Source: Halarcobacter sp. (GTDB lineage Bacteria; Campylobacterota; Campylobacteria; Campylobacterales; Arcobacteraceae). Taken from it: DNA of 64,000 nucleotides. A program made the translations under genes and the position numbers. The notes under the pieces are model-generated. The model searched no databases and had not been told where the DNA came from. It worked only from the letters and a program-made list of their open reading frames with translations. Positions within the stretch are counted from its first letter, which is position 1. Each line of letters opens with the position of its first letter. The stretch is taken from contig CP182352.1 in the NCBI GenBank assembly GCA_048571215.1, forward strand, positions 3,200,001-3,264,000, read 5' to 3'. This document shows, piece after piece, positions 51,331-61,356 of the stretch.

Positions 51331-52143
51331 ATGGACAAAATACAACTTTTTGAATCGAAACAGATAAGAAGTCATTGGGATGAAAATAGTGAATTGTGGT
51401 ATTTTAGTATTGTAGATGTAGTGACAATATTAACTCAAAGTGCTAGTCCTAGAAAATATTGGAATAAACTAAAACAGAGATTAAAAGAGGAAGGAAATGA
51501 AACGGTGACAAATTGTCACCAGTTGAAAATGAAAGCATCTGATGGTAAGATGAGACTTACTGATGTAGCTACTACAGAACAACTTTTAAGGCTTATCCAG
51601 TCTATTCCCTCACCTCAAGCTGAACCTTTTAAAATGTGGCTAGCAAAGGTTGGCTATGAGAGAATAGAAGCTATACAAGATCCTGAAAAGTCTATTGATA
51701 CTGCTTTGAGAGATTATATGAAACTTGGATACTCTGAAAAGTGGATAAACCAAAGACTTAAAAGTATTGAAGTAAGAAAAGAGCTAACTGATGAATGGAA
51801 ACAAAGAGGAGTAGAAGAGGGTAAGGAGTTTGCTCTTCTTACTGATATTATTTCAAAAGCTTGGAGTGGGAATACTACAAAAGAGTATAAAAAACTCAAA
51901 AATCTCAAAAAAGAGAATCTAAGAGACAATATGACAAATCTTGAGCTAGTTCTTAATATGCTTGCAGAAGCAACCACAACAGAAATCTCAAAAGAAAAAA
52001 AGCCAGATGGACTAGATGAAAGTAAAAAAATAGCTAAAGAGGGTGGAACAATAGCAGGAGATACGAGAAAAGCGATAGAAGAAAAAACAGGTAAAAGAGT
52101 TGTAACAAATCAAAATGCAAAAGACTTATTAGAAAACAAATGA
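51331..52143 (+). CDS. Bro-N domain (phage antirepressor-like) DNA-binding protein inserted in the cas operon
   Basis: LFESKQIRSHWD...WYFSIVDVV...YWNKLKQRL...LIQSIPSPQAEPFKMWLA, with C-terminal LRDNMTNLELVLNMLAE. Confidence 0.8.
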   Translation: MDKIQLFESKQIRSHWDENSELWYFSIVDVVTILTQSASPRKYWNKLKQRLKEEGNETVTNCHQLKMKASDGKMRLTDVATTEQLLRLIQSIPSPQAEPFKMWLAKVGYERIEAIQDPEKSIDTALRDYMKLGYSEKWINQRLKSIEVRKELTDEWKQRGVEEGKEFALLTDIISKAWSGNTTKEYKKLKNLKKENLRDNMTNLELVLNMLAEATTTEISKEKKPDGLDESKKIAKEGGTIAGDTRKAIEEKTGKRVVTNQNAKDLLENK

Positions 52144-54127: not shown

Positions 54128-57100
54128 CTTGAACCAAGACATATAATGTATTGAAATGTTTTTACTTTATAAACTGGTATGGGACGAGACTACTTGAACC
54201 AAGACATATAATGTATTGAAATTTATAAATACTATCAATTAAAGCTTTTGGAAGTTGCTTGAACCAAGACATATAATGTATTGAAATTAGTTTTGTTTAA
54301 GTGGAATTAAATCGCCTTGATTGCCTTGAACCAAGACATATAATGTATTGAAATGCACTACCTCAAGAGTATTAAAATTTGTCAATGTCTTGAACCAAGA
54401 CATATAATGTATTGAAATATATTTAAAAAAAGGTAGCAAGGTTTTACTTGAGGGTCTTGAACCAAGACATATAATGTATTGAAATCGTTATCAGGTCGTT
54501 AACTTTAGTAGCTTCGGTTACCTTGAACCAAGACATATAATGTATTGAAATTCTTTAAAGTATTGCATCTGAGTTTCAGTTAGTCTAACTTGAACCAAGA
54601 CATATAATGTATTGAAATGAATTTGAATATATTAAAATAGAAGATAAAAGTAGCTTGAACCAAGACATATAATGTATTGAAATTCACTTTACCAAACAAT
54701 ACTAGCAGGTACTGGAAAAACTTGAACCAAGACATATAATGTATTGAAATTTCGTAATTTTAGATGTACCAGCGATATAGGGAGTCTTGAACCAAGACAT
54801 ATAATGTATTGAAATTAGTTAAACTTCTTTATTTATAGATGTTTTTGAACTCTTGAACCAAGACATATAATGTATTGAAATAACCCATAGTGAGTATGAG
54901 AACCTTGAAAAGTATTTCTTGAACCAAGACATATAATGTATTGAAATAATTTACCAATAGCTATTAATCTTAATCTATTGGACTTGAACCAAGACATATA
55001 ATGTATTGAAATCCAGCTCAATTAGTTAGACCTTCAATAACTGTTTCTTGAACCAAGACATATAATGTATTGAAATAGGACTATCTAGTTCTATGATTTA
55101 TGGAGCAGGAAGTCTTGAACCAAGACATATAATGTATTGAAATTAAATTGGTTTAGGCTCGTTGAAACAAAATATTTCAAACTTGAACCAAGACATATAA
55201 TGTATTGAAATTTAGCAGTAACAGATGTACAAGGTACAAAATTATCTTGAACCAAGACATATAATGTATTGAAATACATCTACATTTTATTTGACTGGGT
55301 ATGTAGTATCTTGAACCAAGACATATAATGTATTGAAATTTATATAGAACATCATTAAGTTATCCAAACGGTAACTTGAACCAAGACATATAATGTATTG
55401 AAATCATCAACCACCCCCAAATCTTTGGAGTGCAACTACTTGAACCAAGACATATAATGTATTGAAATTACTTAATAAAATATCATTCTCATTTGCTGAT
55501 GTCTTGAACCAAGACATATAATGTATTGAAATTTGTATGCAGCCATTTTGCTATTTAATTGTTGTTCCTTGAACCAAGACATATAATGTATTGAAATATT
55601 GACTTTTCATCTATTTGTTTTCTTAGTATTTCCTTGAACCAAGACATATAATGTATTGAAATAAATTAGAAATTGTCCCTACTTTATTATTCCCCTCACT
55701 TGAACCAAGACATATAATGTATTGAAATCCCTTAGTACTAAACTTAGTACTATTACACCAAACACTTGAACCAAGACATATAATGTATTGAAATTAATAA
55801 GAACCTTTCTTAAATTAAAAATTAATTAACTTGAACCAAGACATATAATGTATTGAAATATTAATAAATATTCTAAGCTGCTAAATCAAGAGTGTCTTGA
55901 ACCAAGACATATAATGTATTGAAATTTGATGAAAAACTAACAAAGGAAACTATATGAGAGCCTTGAACCAAGACATATAATGTATTGAAATTTGTTTGGT
56001 TGGATTTGGAGTAGAGAAAACAAAATACTTGAACCAAGACATATAATGTATTGAAATCGTAGAAAAATGGTAGAACAATGGAATAAAAGTGGACTTGAAC
56101 CAAGACATATAATGTATTGAAATCCAAAGTTTTCAGTTTCCCAAGCGACTATTGGTGTACTTGAACCAAGACATATAATGTATTGAAATAAAGCTACAAA
56201 TGTTGCTTATAAAGTATTTAATTTCTTGAACCAAGACATATAATGTATTGAAATTTTGAAGTTATTTTCAAATCATCAGGTCTAACCTTCTTGAACCAAG
56301 ACATATAATGTATTGAAATGCATCAAAAGTAATCACAACTTCGTCGCTATCAACCTTGAACCAAGACATATAATGTATTGAAATCTATTTTGATATTCAT
56401 CATCAGGATTTAATAAATCCTTGAACCAAGACATATAATGTATTGAAATAGGTATTGCAAATGGCGATTACTACATAATTCCTTACTTGAACCAAGACAT
56501 ATAATGTATTGAAATCAAGCTACAATATTTGTACAGTTTGCAGAAAAAGCCTTGAACCAAGACATATAATGTATTGAAATATGTATGCAAATCCAAACGG
56601 AGTATATTTCCCATTACCTTGAACCAAGACATATAATGTATTGAAATTGCACTTGATGCACTAAAATCATAGTCAGGCGAAACTTGAACCAAGACATATA
56701 ATGTATTGAAATACTGGAACAACGCTATCTCTTGGAAATAAAACAGGCCTTGAACCAAGACATATAATGTATTGAAATACTAAAGTAATAACACTAAAAC
56801 CATCATCATAAAGAGCTTGAACCAAGACATATAATGTATTGAAATCATGAAATTGCATTGACTGGGGGATATTTAATTTACCACTTGAACCAAGACATAT
56901 AATGTATTGAAATCCGCTTATAGAAATTACAAACATAGTTTTATTTGTACTTGAACCAAGACATATAATGTATTGAAATATCTCTACCCCATCTTAGAAG
57001 ATGAGATATCTTCCCCTTGAACCAAGACATATAATGTATTGAAATTCTGGTTTAAGCGTTAAGTAGCCGTTAGCATTGACTTGAACCAAGACATATAATG

Positions 57101-58085
57101 TATTGAAATTACATAGTTAAACCAATTGAAAGAGTTTGAATAACTTGAACCAAGACATATAATGTATTGAAATCGAAAATCCAGTTACTCTTTTATATTT
57201 ACTATATTCTTGAACCAAGACATATAATGTATTGAAATCAGAATGGAATATCTGGATATTTCACATTAATGAATACCTTGAACCAAGACATATAATGTAT
57301 TGAAATTAACTAAGTTAACGGCTGTCATAACTAGCACGAACTTGAACCAAGACATATAATGTATTGAAATCTCAATAGATTGATAATCATCCCCATGCAC
57401 AATAACCTTGAACCAAGACATATAATGTATTGAAATGAAACAGAGGAATCAGAACCATAACACTCAGGACTACTTGAACCAAGACATATAATGTATTGAA
57501 ATAAATGTATGAGGGGTTTCAAGGTTTAAAAAGATTCTTGAACCAAGACATATAATGTATTGAAATCACAGTTGCCATAATGTTCTTCAATTTCTAAATC
57601 ACTTGAACCAAAACATATGATGTATTGAAATAGAACTTTCTATTTTTTTGTTATCACAACCTGCACTTGAACCAAAACATATGATATATTGAAATTTAAC
57701 CGTACATTTTTGACTAATTTTCCAACCTTCTTGAATCAAGACATATGATGTATTGAAATATAATGCCTCTAAAAACACTAACAATACCAGTTTTCTTGAA
57801 CCAAGACATATGATGTATTGAAATATCATTGCACCTTTTAATAAGTTGTTTGTTGTCATTCTTGAACCAAGACATATGATGTATTGAAATAAGCTCACTC
57901 ATGCTGAATGGGCTAAAAAAAAGGTACTTGAACCAAGACGTATAATGTATTGAAATTTCTTTTTTATTTCTTAGTATAGCTACCATGCTTTCTTGAACCA
58001 AAACATATGATGTATTGAAATTTTGTATCTACATTGATATAATCAGGTTTTTCATACTTGAACCAAGACATATGATGTATTAAAT
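54128..58085 (+). CRISPR. CRISPR array, 30-bp repeat CTTGAACCAAGACATATAATGTATTGAAAT, about 61 repeats and 60 spacers of about 34-38 bp
   Basis: Manual count. The 3' ATTGAAAT end resembles the type I-B handle. The last 8 repeats are variant. Confidence 0.98.
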
Positions 58086-58245
58086 AATAGTATATGCTTT
58101 TTTTTAAGATTTTATTGTTAATGATATATTTAGAAATATATCATCTCAAGCCTTATCTATTGGTGTATTCATTTTTTATTTTAATAAATCTTTTGGACCT
58201 TAAAATTATTAAAAATTTCTAATATTTTATTTTTTGTATTTAATT

Positions 58246-58274
58246 TTGTCATTTAAATTATCTTGTGTTATAAT
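58246..58274 (+). promoter_or_regulatory. Near-consensus sigma70 promoter downstream of the CRISPR trailer
   Basis: TTGTCA (58246-58251), 17 bp, TATAAT (58269-58274) with extended TG. No + strand CDS follows. Confidence 0.65.
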
Positions 58275-58281
58275 TTTTTTT

Positions 58282-58369
58282 AAAAGCATCTGAATGTGAT
58301 TTTTCACCATGCGTCCCGTTCAAGCTAGCTTGAAGTGAGGGAGTAGACGACCTCTCCAGATGCTTCTTT
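58282..58369 (+). ncRNA. Candidate structured small RNA of unknown family
   Basis: GC-rich island in very AT-rich DNA. Closing stem AAGCATCTG/CAGATGCTT, hairpin GTGA-TTTT-TCAC, perfect palindrome TTCAAGCTAGCTTGAA, CGTC/GACG pairing, then T-rich sequence. Confidence 0.6.
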
Positions 58370-58411
58370 ACAAATCTTTTTAATTCATTTCATTTTGTAT
58401 TTATTAAAAGT

Positions 58412-58440
58412 TTTGAACCAAAATATATGTATAAAAAAAG
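58412..58440 (+). repeat. Orphan degenerate CRISPR repeat
   Basis: TTGAACCAAAATATATG matches the trailer repeat variant TTGAACCAAAACATATG at 16/17. The 3' part is decayed. Confidence 0.65.
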
Positions 58441-58464
58441 ATTTTTAATTTTTTAATATAAAAT

Positions 58465-58800
58465 CTATCCCAGTAAATCTTTCAATGACAAAAATTTTAG
58501 ATTTATCCCACTATATCTCATGATTTTTGCTGTTTCTTTCCATTGTTTTTTTTCATAGCAAGGGGTGGGGCATTTTCTACATTTTGGTTTTATTTCGTGG
58601 GAACACTCTTGGAGACGTTGAAAGGAATAGTTTATTTTTTCTAAACACTCTTTACATAGCTTCAAGTTTAAAGATATGTTTGTATCTTTGTATATCAAAG
58701 TAAGTTTCGTATTTATTTGATTTGTATGTTTTCTATCACAATAAAACTCAAAAAACTTTTTTAAGGTAGTTATTTCTTCATTGAACTTTTTTATTTCCAT
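58465..58800 (-). CDS. YgbA-like (nitrous oxide-stimulated promoter family) Cys-rich protein
   Basis: FYCDRKH, RLQEC, KPKCRKCPTPCY, IMRYSG. Confidence 0.85.
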   Translation of the reverse strand: MEIKKFNEEITTLKKFFEFYCDRKHTNQINTKLTLIYKDTNISLNLKLCKECLEKINYSFQRLQECSHEIKPKCRKCPTPCYEKKQWKETAKIMRYSGINLKFLSLKDLLG

Positions 58801-59043
58801 AACAAAAGTTTATTATAATCTATTTATAAATTCCTTGATATAAATCAAAGTAAATAGTTCCTATCCTAGAATTAAGTCTATTTAATATAAAATTTAAAGT
58901 TGTAGTAAAGTTCTTCAATTCTCTAATATTATGAATATCTGAAGACTTTTTAGGAGATGGATAACAAGAAAAAAGTAAAGAATTTAGTTTTATTAAAGAT
59001 AGATATATATTCTTATACTTAGTATATAAAAGAGTCAAGTTTT

Positions 59044-61356
59044 ATGATTGAAAAATACGATAACATTAAAAATCAAATATATTCTCATCCTAAACTGGGA
59101 CGGCGTATTGCAATTATTATCTTTGGGATACTTGCTTTTGTTAGTTATACAGTTCTTGTCTCTCTTAATCTAAATTATGCAAGAGAGCGAGAGTTGCAAA
59201 CAGGTTATGCGCAACAATCAAGCTTATCGAAGATTCTTGTTAGTCATGCAGAAGCAACATTAAAAAAAATTGATACAGCTTTATTATCAGTACAATTACA
59301 ATTATCCAATAAGTCAGAAGAATCTAGACCAAAACCTTCTGTTATAAATAATATATTAGCTTCTCATCTTGCGTTGATTGGGGAATCCCAAAGTTTACGT
59401 GTATCAAATGCATATGGACATTTTATTTATGATGCCAGTGGTATTTTACATTCTGCAACCATCAGTGATCGAGACTATTTTTTACGTAATCGTGATAATC
59501 CCTATGGTGGATTAGTGATATCAAAACCATTATATGCTCGTATTACCCATAATTGGGTAGTAACACTAAGTCGTGCAATAGTAAATGAAAAAGGACAGTT
59601 TGCTGGATTGATTCAGGCTGCTGTACGTGCTGAATATTTTCAAAGTATTTATGCTTCTTTAGATTTAAGTAAGCATCATAATATTACTTTATTTAATGAT
59701 AAACTTCAAATTATAGCTACTAGTTCACCTCAAATGCAAAGTCAATTAGGGAAAACTATAGATAGTAGTATTTTGCGTGATTTTGTAAAAAGTAAAGATT
59801 TAGAGAAAAGTTATACTTCTAACTTAGAAGAAGATGGTACAGAACGCTATTATATCGCTCGAAAGGTGGGGCAATATCCCCTTTATATCATTGTATCTCA
59901 TACTGTAAAAGATCAATTATTTGAATGGAATAGACAACTTATATGGAGTATTGTAGGTATATTTGTTTTGGCTTTTGTATTGATTGGCTGGATAGTTGTT
60001 TGGTTAAGAAGTTATGATTCTGCTTTAGCCCTTGCTAATCGTATGACCTCTGCTTATGAAAAAACATTACAAGAGATACAGTATTTAGCAGAACATGACT
60101 TTTTAACTGATTTGCCAAATCGTACTTTTTTGGAAGAGTATATGAATTCATTAACAAAAAATCAAGAAGAGAAGATTAAGATTGCCCTTCTTTTTCTTGA
60201 TTTAGATCATTTCAAAGATGTTAATGATACCCTTGGGCATACAGTGGGAGATAAGCTTTTAATTCAAGTAGCAAAACGTTTAATAAAAATTCTTGATAAT
60301 AAAAGTATTATATGTCGTCAAGGGGGTGATGAATTTGTTATTTTGTTAAAAGAGTATCCAAATTCTTTTTCCCTATCTGATACTGCTCAACGTTTAATTA
60401 AAGCTATTGAAAAACCTTTTTTGGTAGATGCACATGAATTTGTTATTTCAGCAAGTATTGGTATAAGTATATATCCCCAACATGGTACTGATGTTATAAC
60501 TTTACTTAAAAATGCTGATACAGCAATGTATCAATCCAAAGCAGATGGAGGGGGTAAATATCATTTCTTTAATGAAGAGATGAATATTAAAGTTCTTAAT
60601 CGTGTTGATATGATCTCTAACTTAAGACAAGCTATTATTAATAATGAATTTGTACTGCATTATCAACCTCAGGTTGATGGATTTAGTGGGCGGATAATTG
60701 GTGTTGAGGCATTGATTCGTTGGAACCATCCTAAGGAAGGAGAAATTTCCCCAGTTCAATTTATCCCAGCAGCTGAAGAGAGTGGTTTGATTAATCCTAT
60801 TGGAGACTGGGTTCTAAAAGAAGCTTGTAAGCAAGCAAAAATATGGAAAGATAAAGGATTGCCTAGTTTAACTATGGCAGTTAATGTATCAGCAGTACAA
60901 TTACGTCAAGCAGATTTTATCGATAAAGTTATGAGTATAGTAAAAAACTCTGGATTATCAGCAGATTGTATAGAGTTGGAAATCACTGAAAGTGCACTAA
61001 TAAGAGATACCCAACGTATAGTTAAAATACTTGAAAAACTAAGAGAAGAGGGTATAAGACTCTCTGTTGATGATTTTGGAACAGGTTATTCAAGTTTAGG
61101 GTATTTGAAGCATTTACCATTTAATAAGATAAAGATAGATCAATCTTTTGTTCGAGGAGTTCCTCAAAATGAAGATGATGTTTCAATAACTCAAGCTATT
61201 ATAGGACTTGCAAAGAGTTTAAAGATGGAACTAATCGCTGAGGGAGTAGAAACCCAAGAGCAATGTAAGTTTCTACTAAATCAAGATTGCCAAGAGATGC
61301 AGGGATATTATTTTGGCAAGCCAATGCCTGCAAGCAAAATAGAAGAGTTGTTATAA
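59044..61356 (+). CDS. Membrane-anchored Cache/PDC sensor GGDEF-EAL diguanylate cyclase/phosphodiesterase
   Basis: Two TM segments flanking a periplasmic region with DRDYF and ISKP. HDFLTDLPNR, DLDHFK, GGDEF, VEALIRW, ELEITES, DDFGTGYSS, KIDQSF, EGVE, QGYYF. Confidence 0.95.
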   Translation: MIEKYDNIKNQIYSHPKLGRRIAIIIFGILAFVSYTVLVSLNLNYARERELQTGYAQQSSLSKILVSHAEATLKKIDTALLSVQLQLSNKSEESRPKPSVINNILASHLALIGESQSLRVSNAYGHFIYDASGILHSATISDRDYFLRNRDNPYGGLVISKPLYARITHNWVVTLSRAIVNEKGQFAGLIQAAVRAEYFQSIYASLDLSKHHNITLFNDKLQIIATSSPQMQSQLGKTIDSSILRDFVKSKDLEKSYTSNLEEDGTERYYIARKVGQYPLYIIVSHTVKDQLFEWNRQLIWSIVGIFVLAFVLIGWIVVWLRSYDSALALANRMTSAYEKTLQEIQYLAEHDFLTDLPNRTFLEEYMNSLTKNQEEKIKIALLFLDLDHFKDVNDTLGHTVGDKLLIQVAKRLIKILDNKSIICRQGGDEFVILLKEYPNSFSLSDTAQRLIKAIEKPFLVDAHEFVISASIGISIYPQHGTDVITLLKNADTAMYQSKADGGGKYHFFNEEMNIKVLNRVDMISNLRQAIINNEFVLHYQPQVDGFSGRIIGVEALIRWNHPKEGEISPVQFIPAAEESGLINPIGDWVLKEACKQAKIWKDKGLPSLTMAVNVSAVQLRQADFIDKVMSIVKNSGLSADCIELEITESALIRDTQRIVKILEKLREEGIRLSVDDFGTGYSSLGYLKHLPFNKIKIDQSFVRGVPQNEDDVSITQAIIGLAKSLKMELIAEGVETQEQCKFLLNQDCQEMQGYYFGKPMPASKIEELL

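Follow-up and report, generated by a model that had tools for sequence, protein, structure and literature searches.

The trailer of the type I-B CRISPR array in the window (the whole 64,000-nt stretch of DNA analysed here) was found to contain a promoter-driven folded element. On the basis of sequence comparison, this element belongs to a structured-RNA family that is absent from Rfam 15 and lies antisense in the tail of a Cpp33/PBECR-like domain. The window element reads as a fragment captured from a nuclease gene of a phage or plasmid, in which the RNA is encoded on the reverse strand, and the 325 nt that separate the last repeat from a half repeat as the end of that foreign gene, in the position of an oversized last spacer. 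The alignments and the covariance model bear out membership in the family, the antisense position in the tail, the conservation of the fold, the origin of the window fragment and the recurrence of orphan copies. With regard to function, we give an even chance to an orphan antidote RNA, which would bind the nuclease of an incoming phage or plasmid in a type III-like manner and would need neither Cas6 nor Cascade.

Structure of the locus and the array trailer

The window contains a type I-B locus with the order hsp20, cas6, cas8b, cas7, cas5, cas3, Bro-N gene, cas4, cas1, cas2 and array, in a genome consisting of a single 3.6-Mb contig with 28.5% GC. Between the array end and the convergent ygbA-like gene, 378 nt of non-coding DNA were delimited (Table 1). 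The inverted repeat in this region overlaps two weak divergent promoter-like sites. Repeat variants of the trailer (57602-58086) were identical to the main repeat of the arrays of several relatives, which suggests that the repeat has changed in the lineage of the window.

Table 1. Features of the CRISPR trailer and of the RNA element, in window coordinates.
Feature	Position	Strand	Remark
Type I-B CRISPR array, 61 repeats, spacers 34-38 nt	54128..58086	+	cas6-cas8b-cas7-cas5-cas3-BroN-cas4-cas1-cas2 upstream
Last repeat of array, degenerate	58057-58086	+	
Putative foreign insert as oversized last spacer, 325 nt	58087..58411		outer limits inferred from flanking repeats
Perfect 11-bp inverted repeat, 2-nt centre; operator-like or remnant of repeat 3' half	58121..58144		sequence
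Sigma-70 promoter TTGTCA-17-TATAAT, extended -10 (TG)	58246..58274	+	11/12 consensus
Putative decayed coding remnant of nuclease tail, 43-codon open stretch	58263..58411	-	catalytic domain missing
Predicted small RNA, start and end inferred	58281..58370	+	
Helix P1	58284-58292/58357-58365	+	
Helix P2	58296-58299/58304-58307	+	
Mini-ORF, incidental	58309..58338	+	ATG there in 2/51 family members; no Shine-Dalgarno upstream
Probable pseudoknot	58312-58315/58346-58349	+	
Helix P3	58319-58324/58329-58334	+	
Helix P4	58337-58341/58352-58356	+	
CRISPR repeat 5' half, taken as truncated terminal repeat of array	58412..58429	+	16/17 to old repeat variant
ygbA-like gene, convergent; host gene, outside the module	58465..58800	-	

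The match to the 5' part of the repeat, proposed in a preliminary description of this DNA, is present, and is one of just two non-array matches genome-wide at ≤2 mismatches. The sibling set comprised all 26 related Cas1 loci among 184 family genomes, and in 6 of the 21 sibling arrays with a visible trailer a truncated or degenerate repeat closed the array at a distance of one spacer from the last full copy (four of these were 5' halves); the half repeat is therefore regarded as an ordinary array end. Comparison of 1607 spacers with genome G000 gave no convincing protospacer, hence no PAM was derived.

Further features of the locus and its siblings were observed. The Bro-N gene between cas3 and cas4 (51331-52143) corresponds to the PADLOC candidate PDC-S13 (E 3e-137) and is also found in several sibling I-B loci. 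In the sister genome G002 the whole cas operon was lost, and the first 90 nt of cas6 were fused to a single repeat (L060:1312-1500, C2) located 63 nt from ygbA. The cas1 gene was in two pieces, split at about the same position, in two genomes (G010:C1:434050-435050 and G180:C22:162458-163458), and a transposase-bearing insertion, which we take to be IS3-like, was identified within a sibling CRISPR array (L055:17139-18386, G031).

The promoter and folded element of the window

A near-consensus extended -10 promoter and a GC-rich element with a 9-bp closing stem and inner hairpins had been described previously, and both were recovered. The promoter was the best of 10 sites in 58050-59100, where shuffles give 8.8 sites of any score. 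The folded element (58284-58365) is 82 nt long with 47.6% GC, in comparison to 28.5% for the genome, and has three hairpins inside the closing stem. The fold scored z -2.3 to -2.6 on the plus strand, where 3 and 0 of 200 shuffles did equally well, and z -3.2 on the minus strand.

A known housekeeping RNA, considered earlier as an alternative, found no backing in Rfam, with no match at gathering score in the window and one junk match (E 7.4) near the element. Likewise, the element does not appear to serve as a terminator of the ygbA-like gene: no intrinsic terminator or terminator-like site was detected at the element, and in all 24 genus relatives ygbA was present and the element was not detected behind it. 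A BLAST query with an AT-rich 231-nt sequence returned short noise in 36 of 61 genomes, the element core had no real homologue in 184 family genomes, plasmids or phages, and a 15-mer viral scan yielded 73 loci with no match longer than 22 nt. Among 401 genomes of the order, 11 matched the core by BLAST, and two of these (G056 and G244) were real on inspection, sharing with the window element the promoter, the closing stem and the hairpins, with compensatory changes between them.

A structured RNA family

In both G056 and G244, a large protein gene carries the RNA on its reverse strand, directly behind a 110-residue domain with an HPEMF motif. A covariance model, R1, was built from 18 sequences, including the window copy, which scored 85 bits with this model of which it is a training member. 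At the 19 places of the domain, which are training loci, R1 detected an RNA in the tail strongly in 14 cases and weakly in four, with no match in one. Held-out matches were obtained in G103 (four), G308 (two) and G058 (one). In a set of loci collected by pattern scan, from which L246, overlapping L245, was left out, R1 matched all 18 submitted loci of Campylobacterales genomes and 11 of the 20 metagenome loci; seven non-Campylobacterales loci, the other nine metagenome loci and one viral locus gave no score with R1 and were dropped.

The family RNA is a single four-helix molecule of 80-115 nt. In 51 distinct sequences, related and thus non-independent and with an alignment fitted to the structure, 96.8% of cells were paired and 17 of 18 pairs had two-sided changes. 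The covariation score was 0.741, in contrast to 0.245 for shuffled and at most 0.148 for slid alignments. In the window copy all 18 model pairs are formed, four of them with two-sided changes in reference to the closest relative, the metagenome locus L262. On the promoter strand, G-U cells outnumbered A-C cells by 40 to 8, so that the fold is assigned to this strand rather than to the mRNA. The linker pairs with the P4 loop with a score of 13.0 for cognate combinations, against 11.4 for non-cognate and 11.0 for shuffled ones (maximum 11.8 of 200), and compensatory examples are present; this difference lends modest support to a pseudoknot, which is probable in the family RNA.

The promoter string TGnTAnnnT was present in 39 of the 51 members, which had partly been selected by the search pattern. 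Read in reverse complement, the extended -10 box gives the I-I-P-Q codons at the module end, and the window promoter on the minus strand likewise corresponds to codons ending the nuclease module (the I-I-P-Q motif of relatives). In intact homologues, the RNA is complementary to the nuclease mRNA, antisense in the predicted disordered C-terminal tail.

The family is rare, with occurrence in 2 of 150 family genomes and 9 of 150 order genomes, and in 1 of 61 and 0 of 32 genomes of two other families. In Rfam, nine homologous loci gave no relevant match (one at E 0.43). A scan for antisense promoters and folds over two whole polyvalent genes failed its positive control, as the known RNA scored z -0.3.

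Variation within the family was also seen. A shorter subtype has no P2 and retains the closing stem, P4 and the pseudoknot complementarity (L186:1766-1873, L187:1293-1400, L188:1383-1491). Second, different RNAs were located close behind the first, in or beside one gene, in L265, L266, L188 and L245, the last of which contains several cpp33-like modules in a row.

The associated nuclease-like domain

The HPEMF domain was identified in 12 of 301 order genomes (19 places). As solo Cpp33 it occurs on 141 plasmids, 133 of them conjugative, and in polyvalent prophage proteins it is fused with PBECR1/2/3, LPD23 and ART domains. The domain family comprised 316 clusters at 50% identity. It was not found in the phage collection, the ESM Atlas or one of two viral scans, and the other viral scan returned one locus.

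The structural model of the domain (pLDDT 64) has a helix-and-sheet core, followed by a disordered tail (residues 108-140) which encodes the RNA. The top structural matches were CdiA-CT, colicin D, colicin E5, MqsR and BrnT. All were at Z ≤4.9, and the best rows, weak matches to BECR RNases, had Z 4.9 (rmsd 4.6, 77 aligned) and Z 4.8 (rmsd 3.2, 74 aligned). The best Foldseek match was colicin E5 at E 0.44, with none below. At this level of similarity, a BECR RNase fold is likely for the modelled domain, short of proof. His37 is invariant at the end of helix 30-36 (13 of 13 rows), and the last strand of the domain is closed by an invariant His, with no invariant Ser/Thr that would correspond to the C-terminal Ser/Thr of the BECR active site. 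None of the Pfam PBECR1-4 cut-offs was reached; the best was PBECR2 at E 0.04, with 14.6 bits against a cut-off of 27.1. The domain presumably acts as a toxic RNase. Up to 26% of polyvalent proteins contain PBECR domains according to the available part of PMC5512222.

In L276 (1500-1580) and L178, different nuclease modules have almost the same junction sequence immediately downstream of the antisense promoter, possibly a crossover point for module shuffling.

Origin of the insert

The 325-nt insert was resolved into two parts, namely the 3'-terminal portion of a minus-strand Cpp33/PBECR-like gene and about 140 nt of AT-rich downstream DNA. Positions 58266-58390 are 72% identical to L262 (BLAST E 4e-18, with L262 held out of the model), where the RNA lies within the gene of an intact protein at least 1185 residues long. 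The minus-strand frame of the window aligned with the L262 protein at 33% identity over 52 residues (E 1e-6), and is broken by a stop codon five codons upstream of the RNA. Together, the L262 match, the broken frame and the absence of the catalytic part indicate that the insert is the end of a foreign gene. No cognate domain was found elsewhere in the window genome (best E 0.38).

These results also bear on the earlier suggestion of the orphaned RNA of a lost Abi gene, which is supported in so far as a promoter-driven RNA of a lost toxin-like gene is concerned. The gene, though, is a predicted PBECR/Cpp33-like RNase and not Abi/HEPN, and the abiF motif (RF03085) had no match at E ≤10 in 58050-58600, nor at E ≤1 in the nine homologous loci.

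The element was present in none of the 26 sibling I-B loci, and the insert was absent from the two relatives in which ygbA is flanked by an array or a repeat, with just 57-63 nt in its place. Of 1622 intervals in the arrays of the window and its siblings, two were oversized, and neither was of the gene-tail-with-RNA kind. The insertion may have come about by Cas1-Cas2, by recombination or by an integrating element.

CRISPR-linked and Bro-N-directed readings

The preliminary description had proposed a candidate CRISPR-linked RNA module, with a Cas6-processed guide among the possible readings, and had noted a weak handle-like tract (TTACAAAT, 58368-58375) one spacer length (36 nt) ahead of the half repeat. 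A CRISPR-linked mini-array is not supported by the comparisons. The coordinates and the gap are accurate, but the handle and 15 nt of the proposed spacer fall within the stretch matching L262 and are homologous to nuclease coding sequence, so the reading as handle and spacer is abandoned. CRISPR linkage of the homologues was not found either, as most lie in prophage or plasmid genes and the sibling I-B loci are without the element.

In the specific form of a CreTA/CreR-like system, the folded RNA would be the toxin, and the 36-nt tract a Cas6-processed guide repressing its promoter. The layout does resemble creT-creA with its gap of one spacer length, and the sister genome G002 is without both the cas genes and the element. 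Nevertheless, the tract agrees with the handle at only 5 of 8 positions, and at about 10 of 30 over the repeat length (by eye). Its seed (positions 1-5 and 7-11) matches the promoter of the element at 8 of 10 positions at best, and the cas6 promoter at 8-9 of 10, over nine registers; the CreA of H. hubeiense needs 10 of 10 (PMC8501985, available part). CreT is defined, in the parts available of PMC8501985 and 10.64898/2026.06.02.729485, by a Shine-Dalgarno sequence, a start codon, tandem rare or proline codons and then a hairpin. The mini-ORF had been placed correctly and described as lacking a clear Shine-Dalgarno sequence, but it carries no apparent significance: it has one rare Arg codon (1.1 per 1000) followed by Pro, with no tandem rare codons. 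A CreT identity was accordingly rejected on the missing Shine-Dalgarno sequence, the single Arg and Pro codons and the start codon conserved in so few members. With the homologues not being cas-linked, a CreTA/CreR-like system is very improbable. More generally, a CreTA locus can be mimicked by the combination of promoter, hairpin and half repeat at the end of an array.

Another reading makes the RNA a trans-antisense regulator of the Bro-N gene of the cas operon, since 58327-58348 is complementary to 51600-51621 at 20 of 22 positions and only 1 of 1000 shuffles was as good against the cas locus. Genome-wide, however, 82 of 1000 shuffles were as good, the match was noticed after the fact, and the segment is mostly the conserved P4 motif of the RNA family. 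Moreover, in four of four relatives with the gene there is no second copy, i.e. no partner for the pairing, and the match is therefore probably due to chance; a regulatory role towards Bro-N is extremely improbable.

Orphan copies and an array with several oversized inserts

Nuclease-free copies of the RNA, with no intact domain in any, were found as four in G103, two in G308 and one in G058. G103 has a tandem array of four different family RNAs (L209:364-884, C24). The array lies behind two promoters and follows a relaxase gene on a plasmid-like contig of 10 kb, where just a scrap of the nuclease gene is present. Extra RNAs also accumulate in some ORFs. The recurrence of orphan copies suggests that the RNA has a value in trans.

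A second array with RNA-bearing inserts was detected in G056 (L178:9006-11800, C5), where 64 repeats contain three oversized inserts. The first (400 nt) lies between full repeats 59 and 60 and consists of a gene tail and the start of a portal-like gene; the second (1822 nt), after the last repeat, is a polyvalent gene with two nuclease-like domains; and the third (about 235 nt) is between a half and a degenerate repeat. All three comprise a gene tail, an antisense promoter-like site and a closed-stem RNA, and two had not been selected for this. The z-scores of the RNAs, from -2.6 to -5.6, are best-of-window values. The G056 assembly, a MAG, is 8% contaminated and contains a related polyvalent gene on contig C25, so a chimeric assembly is possible and the array is suggestive evidence for RNA-bearing inserts.

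In view of the two relatives having the same ygbA junction without the element, the window copy may be a recent neutral passenger. Neutral debris could have arisen by aberrant spacer acquisition or from a decayed mobile element integrated in the terminal repeat; elements that integrate in CRISPR repeats are known (available parts of PMC11837452 and 10.1101/2020.10.09.333658). The single copy, the lack of a cognate domain in the genome and the absence from sibling loci agree with this origin. On the other hand, the promoter (11/12) and all 18 pairs are intact though the reading frame is broken, orphans recur, and the oversized inserts of G056 are each of the same gene-tail and antisense-RNA type. 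Neutral debris is on balance considered unlikely.

Proposed function

The antidote reading starts from the result of the comparisons that phages and conjugative plasmids of Campylobacterales encode the RNA antisense in the tail of a likely BECR-fold RNase domain, under a strong promoter of its own. The RNA would fold into a closed, four-helix pseudoknotted shape, and is predicted to bind and block the nuclease, as type III and AbiF antitoxins do. As RNA and nuclease are on the same DNA, each module carries its cognate RNA during domain shuffling. The 3' end of such a gene was inserted at the I-B array trailer as the 325-nt last spacer, with the nuclease part lost and the promoter and every base pair of the RNA intact. 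With these parts retained, the cell would make an antidote to a nuclease delivered by an incoming phage or plasmid, with no involvement of Cas6 or Cascade, and the window copy would thus be expressed and protective. Some PBECRs are speculated to cut crRNA (Iyer et al. 2017, PMC5512222, available part); if so, this would make the window copy an anti-anti-CRISPR.

Because the RNA is the full complement of its own mRNA, plain antisense control is also conceivable. The origin would be the same, and the RNA would act as a cis-antisense repressor (type I-like) by pairing with the nuclease mRNA, causing decay or a block of translation; orphan copies could then silence closely related incoming mRNAs. 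The perfect overlap with the mRNA and the strong promoter are in line with this, as are the type I systems with antisense antitoxins known in Helicobacter from the partially available literature. Yet pairing has no need of four conserved helices and a covarying pseudoknot, the overlap is in the middle of the ORF in kilobase-long proteins, far from the ribosome-binding site, and the closest known relative of the window copy is only 68-72% identical. Cis-antisense repression is accordingly a minor, doubtful option.

Instead of inhibiting, the RNA could be a cofactor, a guide or a decoy substrate in an active ribonucleoprotein with the domain. The compact tRNA-sized multibranch fold, with its variable arm P3 and loop-linker pairing, would suit such a role, and BECR relatives act on tRNA (PMC5512222, available part). 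Protein-free orphan arrays fit an antidote better, however, and P3 is paired, leaving no exposed guide; a cofactor role is quite improbable.

The antidote reading may also be extended to a general scheme. PBECR RNases delivered by phages and plasmids would each carry an antisense antidote in the tail, a toxin-antitoxin layout without an earlier description, hosts would steal these antidotes, and I-B arrays would archive them whole, with promoter, as oversized spacers, providing a second memory which neutralises an injected, possibly anti-CRISPR, nuclease without Cas proteins. This scheme is tentative and, in our judgement, rather unlikely to hold in full.

Relation to known systems

The arrangement would amount to an RNase with an RNA antidote in a layout that corresponds to neither type I nor type III, with orphan copies captured by hosts. 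The toxins of type I systems are short hydrophobic peptides. Antisense RNAs of that type (IsoA, H. pylori) resemble the present RNA in being antisense to the toxin mRNA with their own promoter; here, in contrast, the target is a folded enzyme domain in large proteins, and the RNA keeps a conserved tertiary fold. With type III systems (ToxIN, CptIN, TenpIN) the likeness is in the combination of an RNase toxin and a small pseudoknotted RNA, partner and binding being predicted in the present case. Antitoxins of type III form tandem repeats that precede the toxin gene and are co-transcribed with it, with a terminator between, whereas here the ORF itself contains one RNA on its opposite strand, which has a separate promoter and a BECR-like partner. 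The phage-borne 'pseudo-ToxI' illustrates that an antitoxin RNA can persist apart from its toxin (PMC5086642, available part).

In AbiF/RCd22, a structured RNA of about 100 nt neutralises the nuclease by protein binding, in cis and in trans, according to the available part of PMC12373285. The present RNA differs from AbiF (RF03085) in having no Rfam match, a non-HEPN partner and a position other than the 5' leader of the toxin mRNA. CreTA, CreR and crlRNA share with the window element a small promoter-driven RNA beside a I-B locus and a degenerate repeat nearby; the window element has no usable handle, seed match, Shine-Dalgarno sequence or tandem rare codons, and its sequence is nuclease-derived.

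With the PBECR polyvalent proteins (jhp1044 family, pTet Cpp33), the domain has in common the prophage and T4SS plasmid context, the mosaic modules and the His of the N-terminal helix, yet it remains below every Pfam PBECR1-4 cut-off. No immunity partner of PBECR was described in the literature searched, and an embedded RNA would explain both the survival of carriers and the free shuffling of domains. Besides adding an RNA family missing from Rfam, the results suggest that CRISPR trailers can keep functional RNA genes.

Precedents for expression

No description of antisense RNA in PBECR genes was found in a literature search largely outside subscription journals. The terms 'antisense' and 'RNA antitoxin' did not occur in the available part of the 2026 BECR classification, nor 'antisense' and 'noncoding RNA' in Iyer et al. 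(PMC5512222), and three sequence strings were absent from the eight supplements of PMC8040213 that were searched.

The proposed function would offer a testable role for strong, unexplained antisense RNAs, i.e. those of C. jejuni pTet cpp33 and of H. pylori Hp1116 and Hp0488. Of the latter two genes, Hp0488 presumably belongs to the Hp1116/jhp1044 mosaic family. Hp1116 and jhp1044 form a mosaic family according to the available part of PMC3221604, and two antisense RNAs each are reported for Hp1116 and Hp0488, with no function stated in the available part of PMC8322730.

In C. jejuni 81-176, an antisense start site with a step height of 8855, the second-highest pTet row, is located inside pTet cpp33 (PMC3656092, Tables S5 and S12, available part). 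The chromosomal start-site table of the same study, searched for promoter strings of the R1 type, gave no match. The pTet cpp33 gene is a sister module, as its RNA has no match to R1 and its protein could not be aligned with the domain (probability 1.5%). Its antisense promoter is, by eye, nearly the same as the one preceding a family RNA in L201 (NZ_CP017879.1:11428-15133). This locus, of a C. coli plasmid, consists of three tandem Rha and cpp33-type cassettes with different alleles, two of which contain an R1 RNA.
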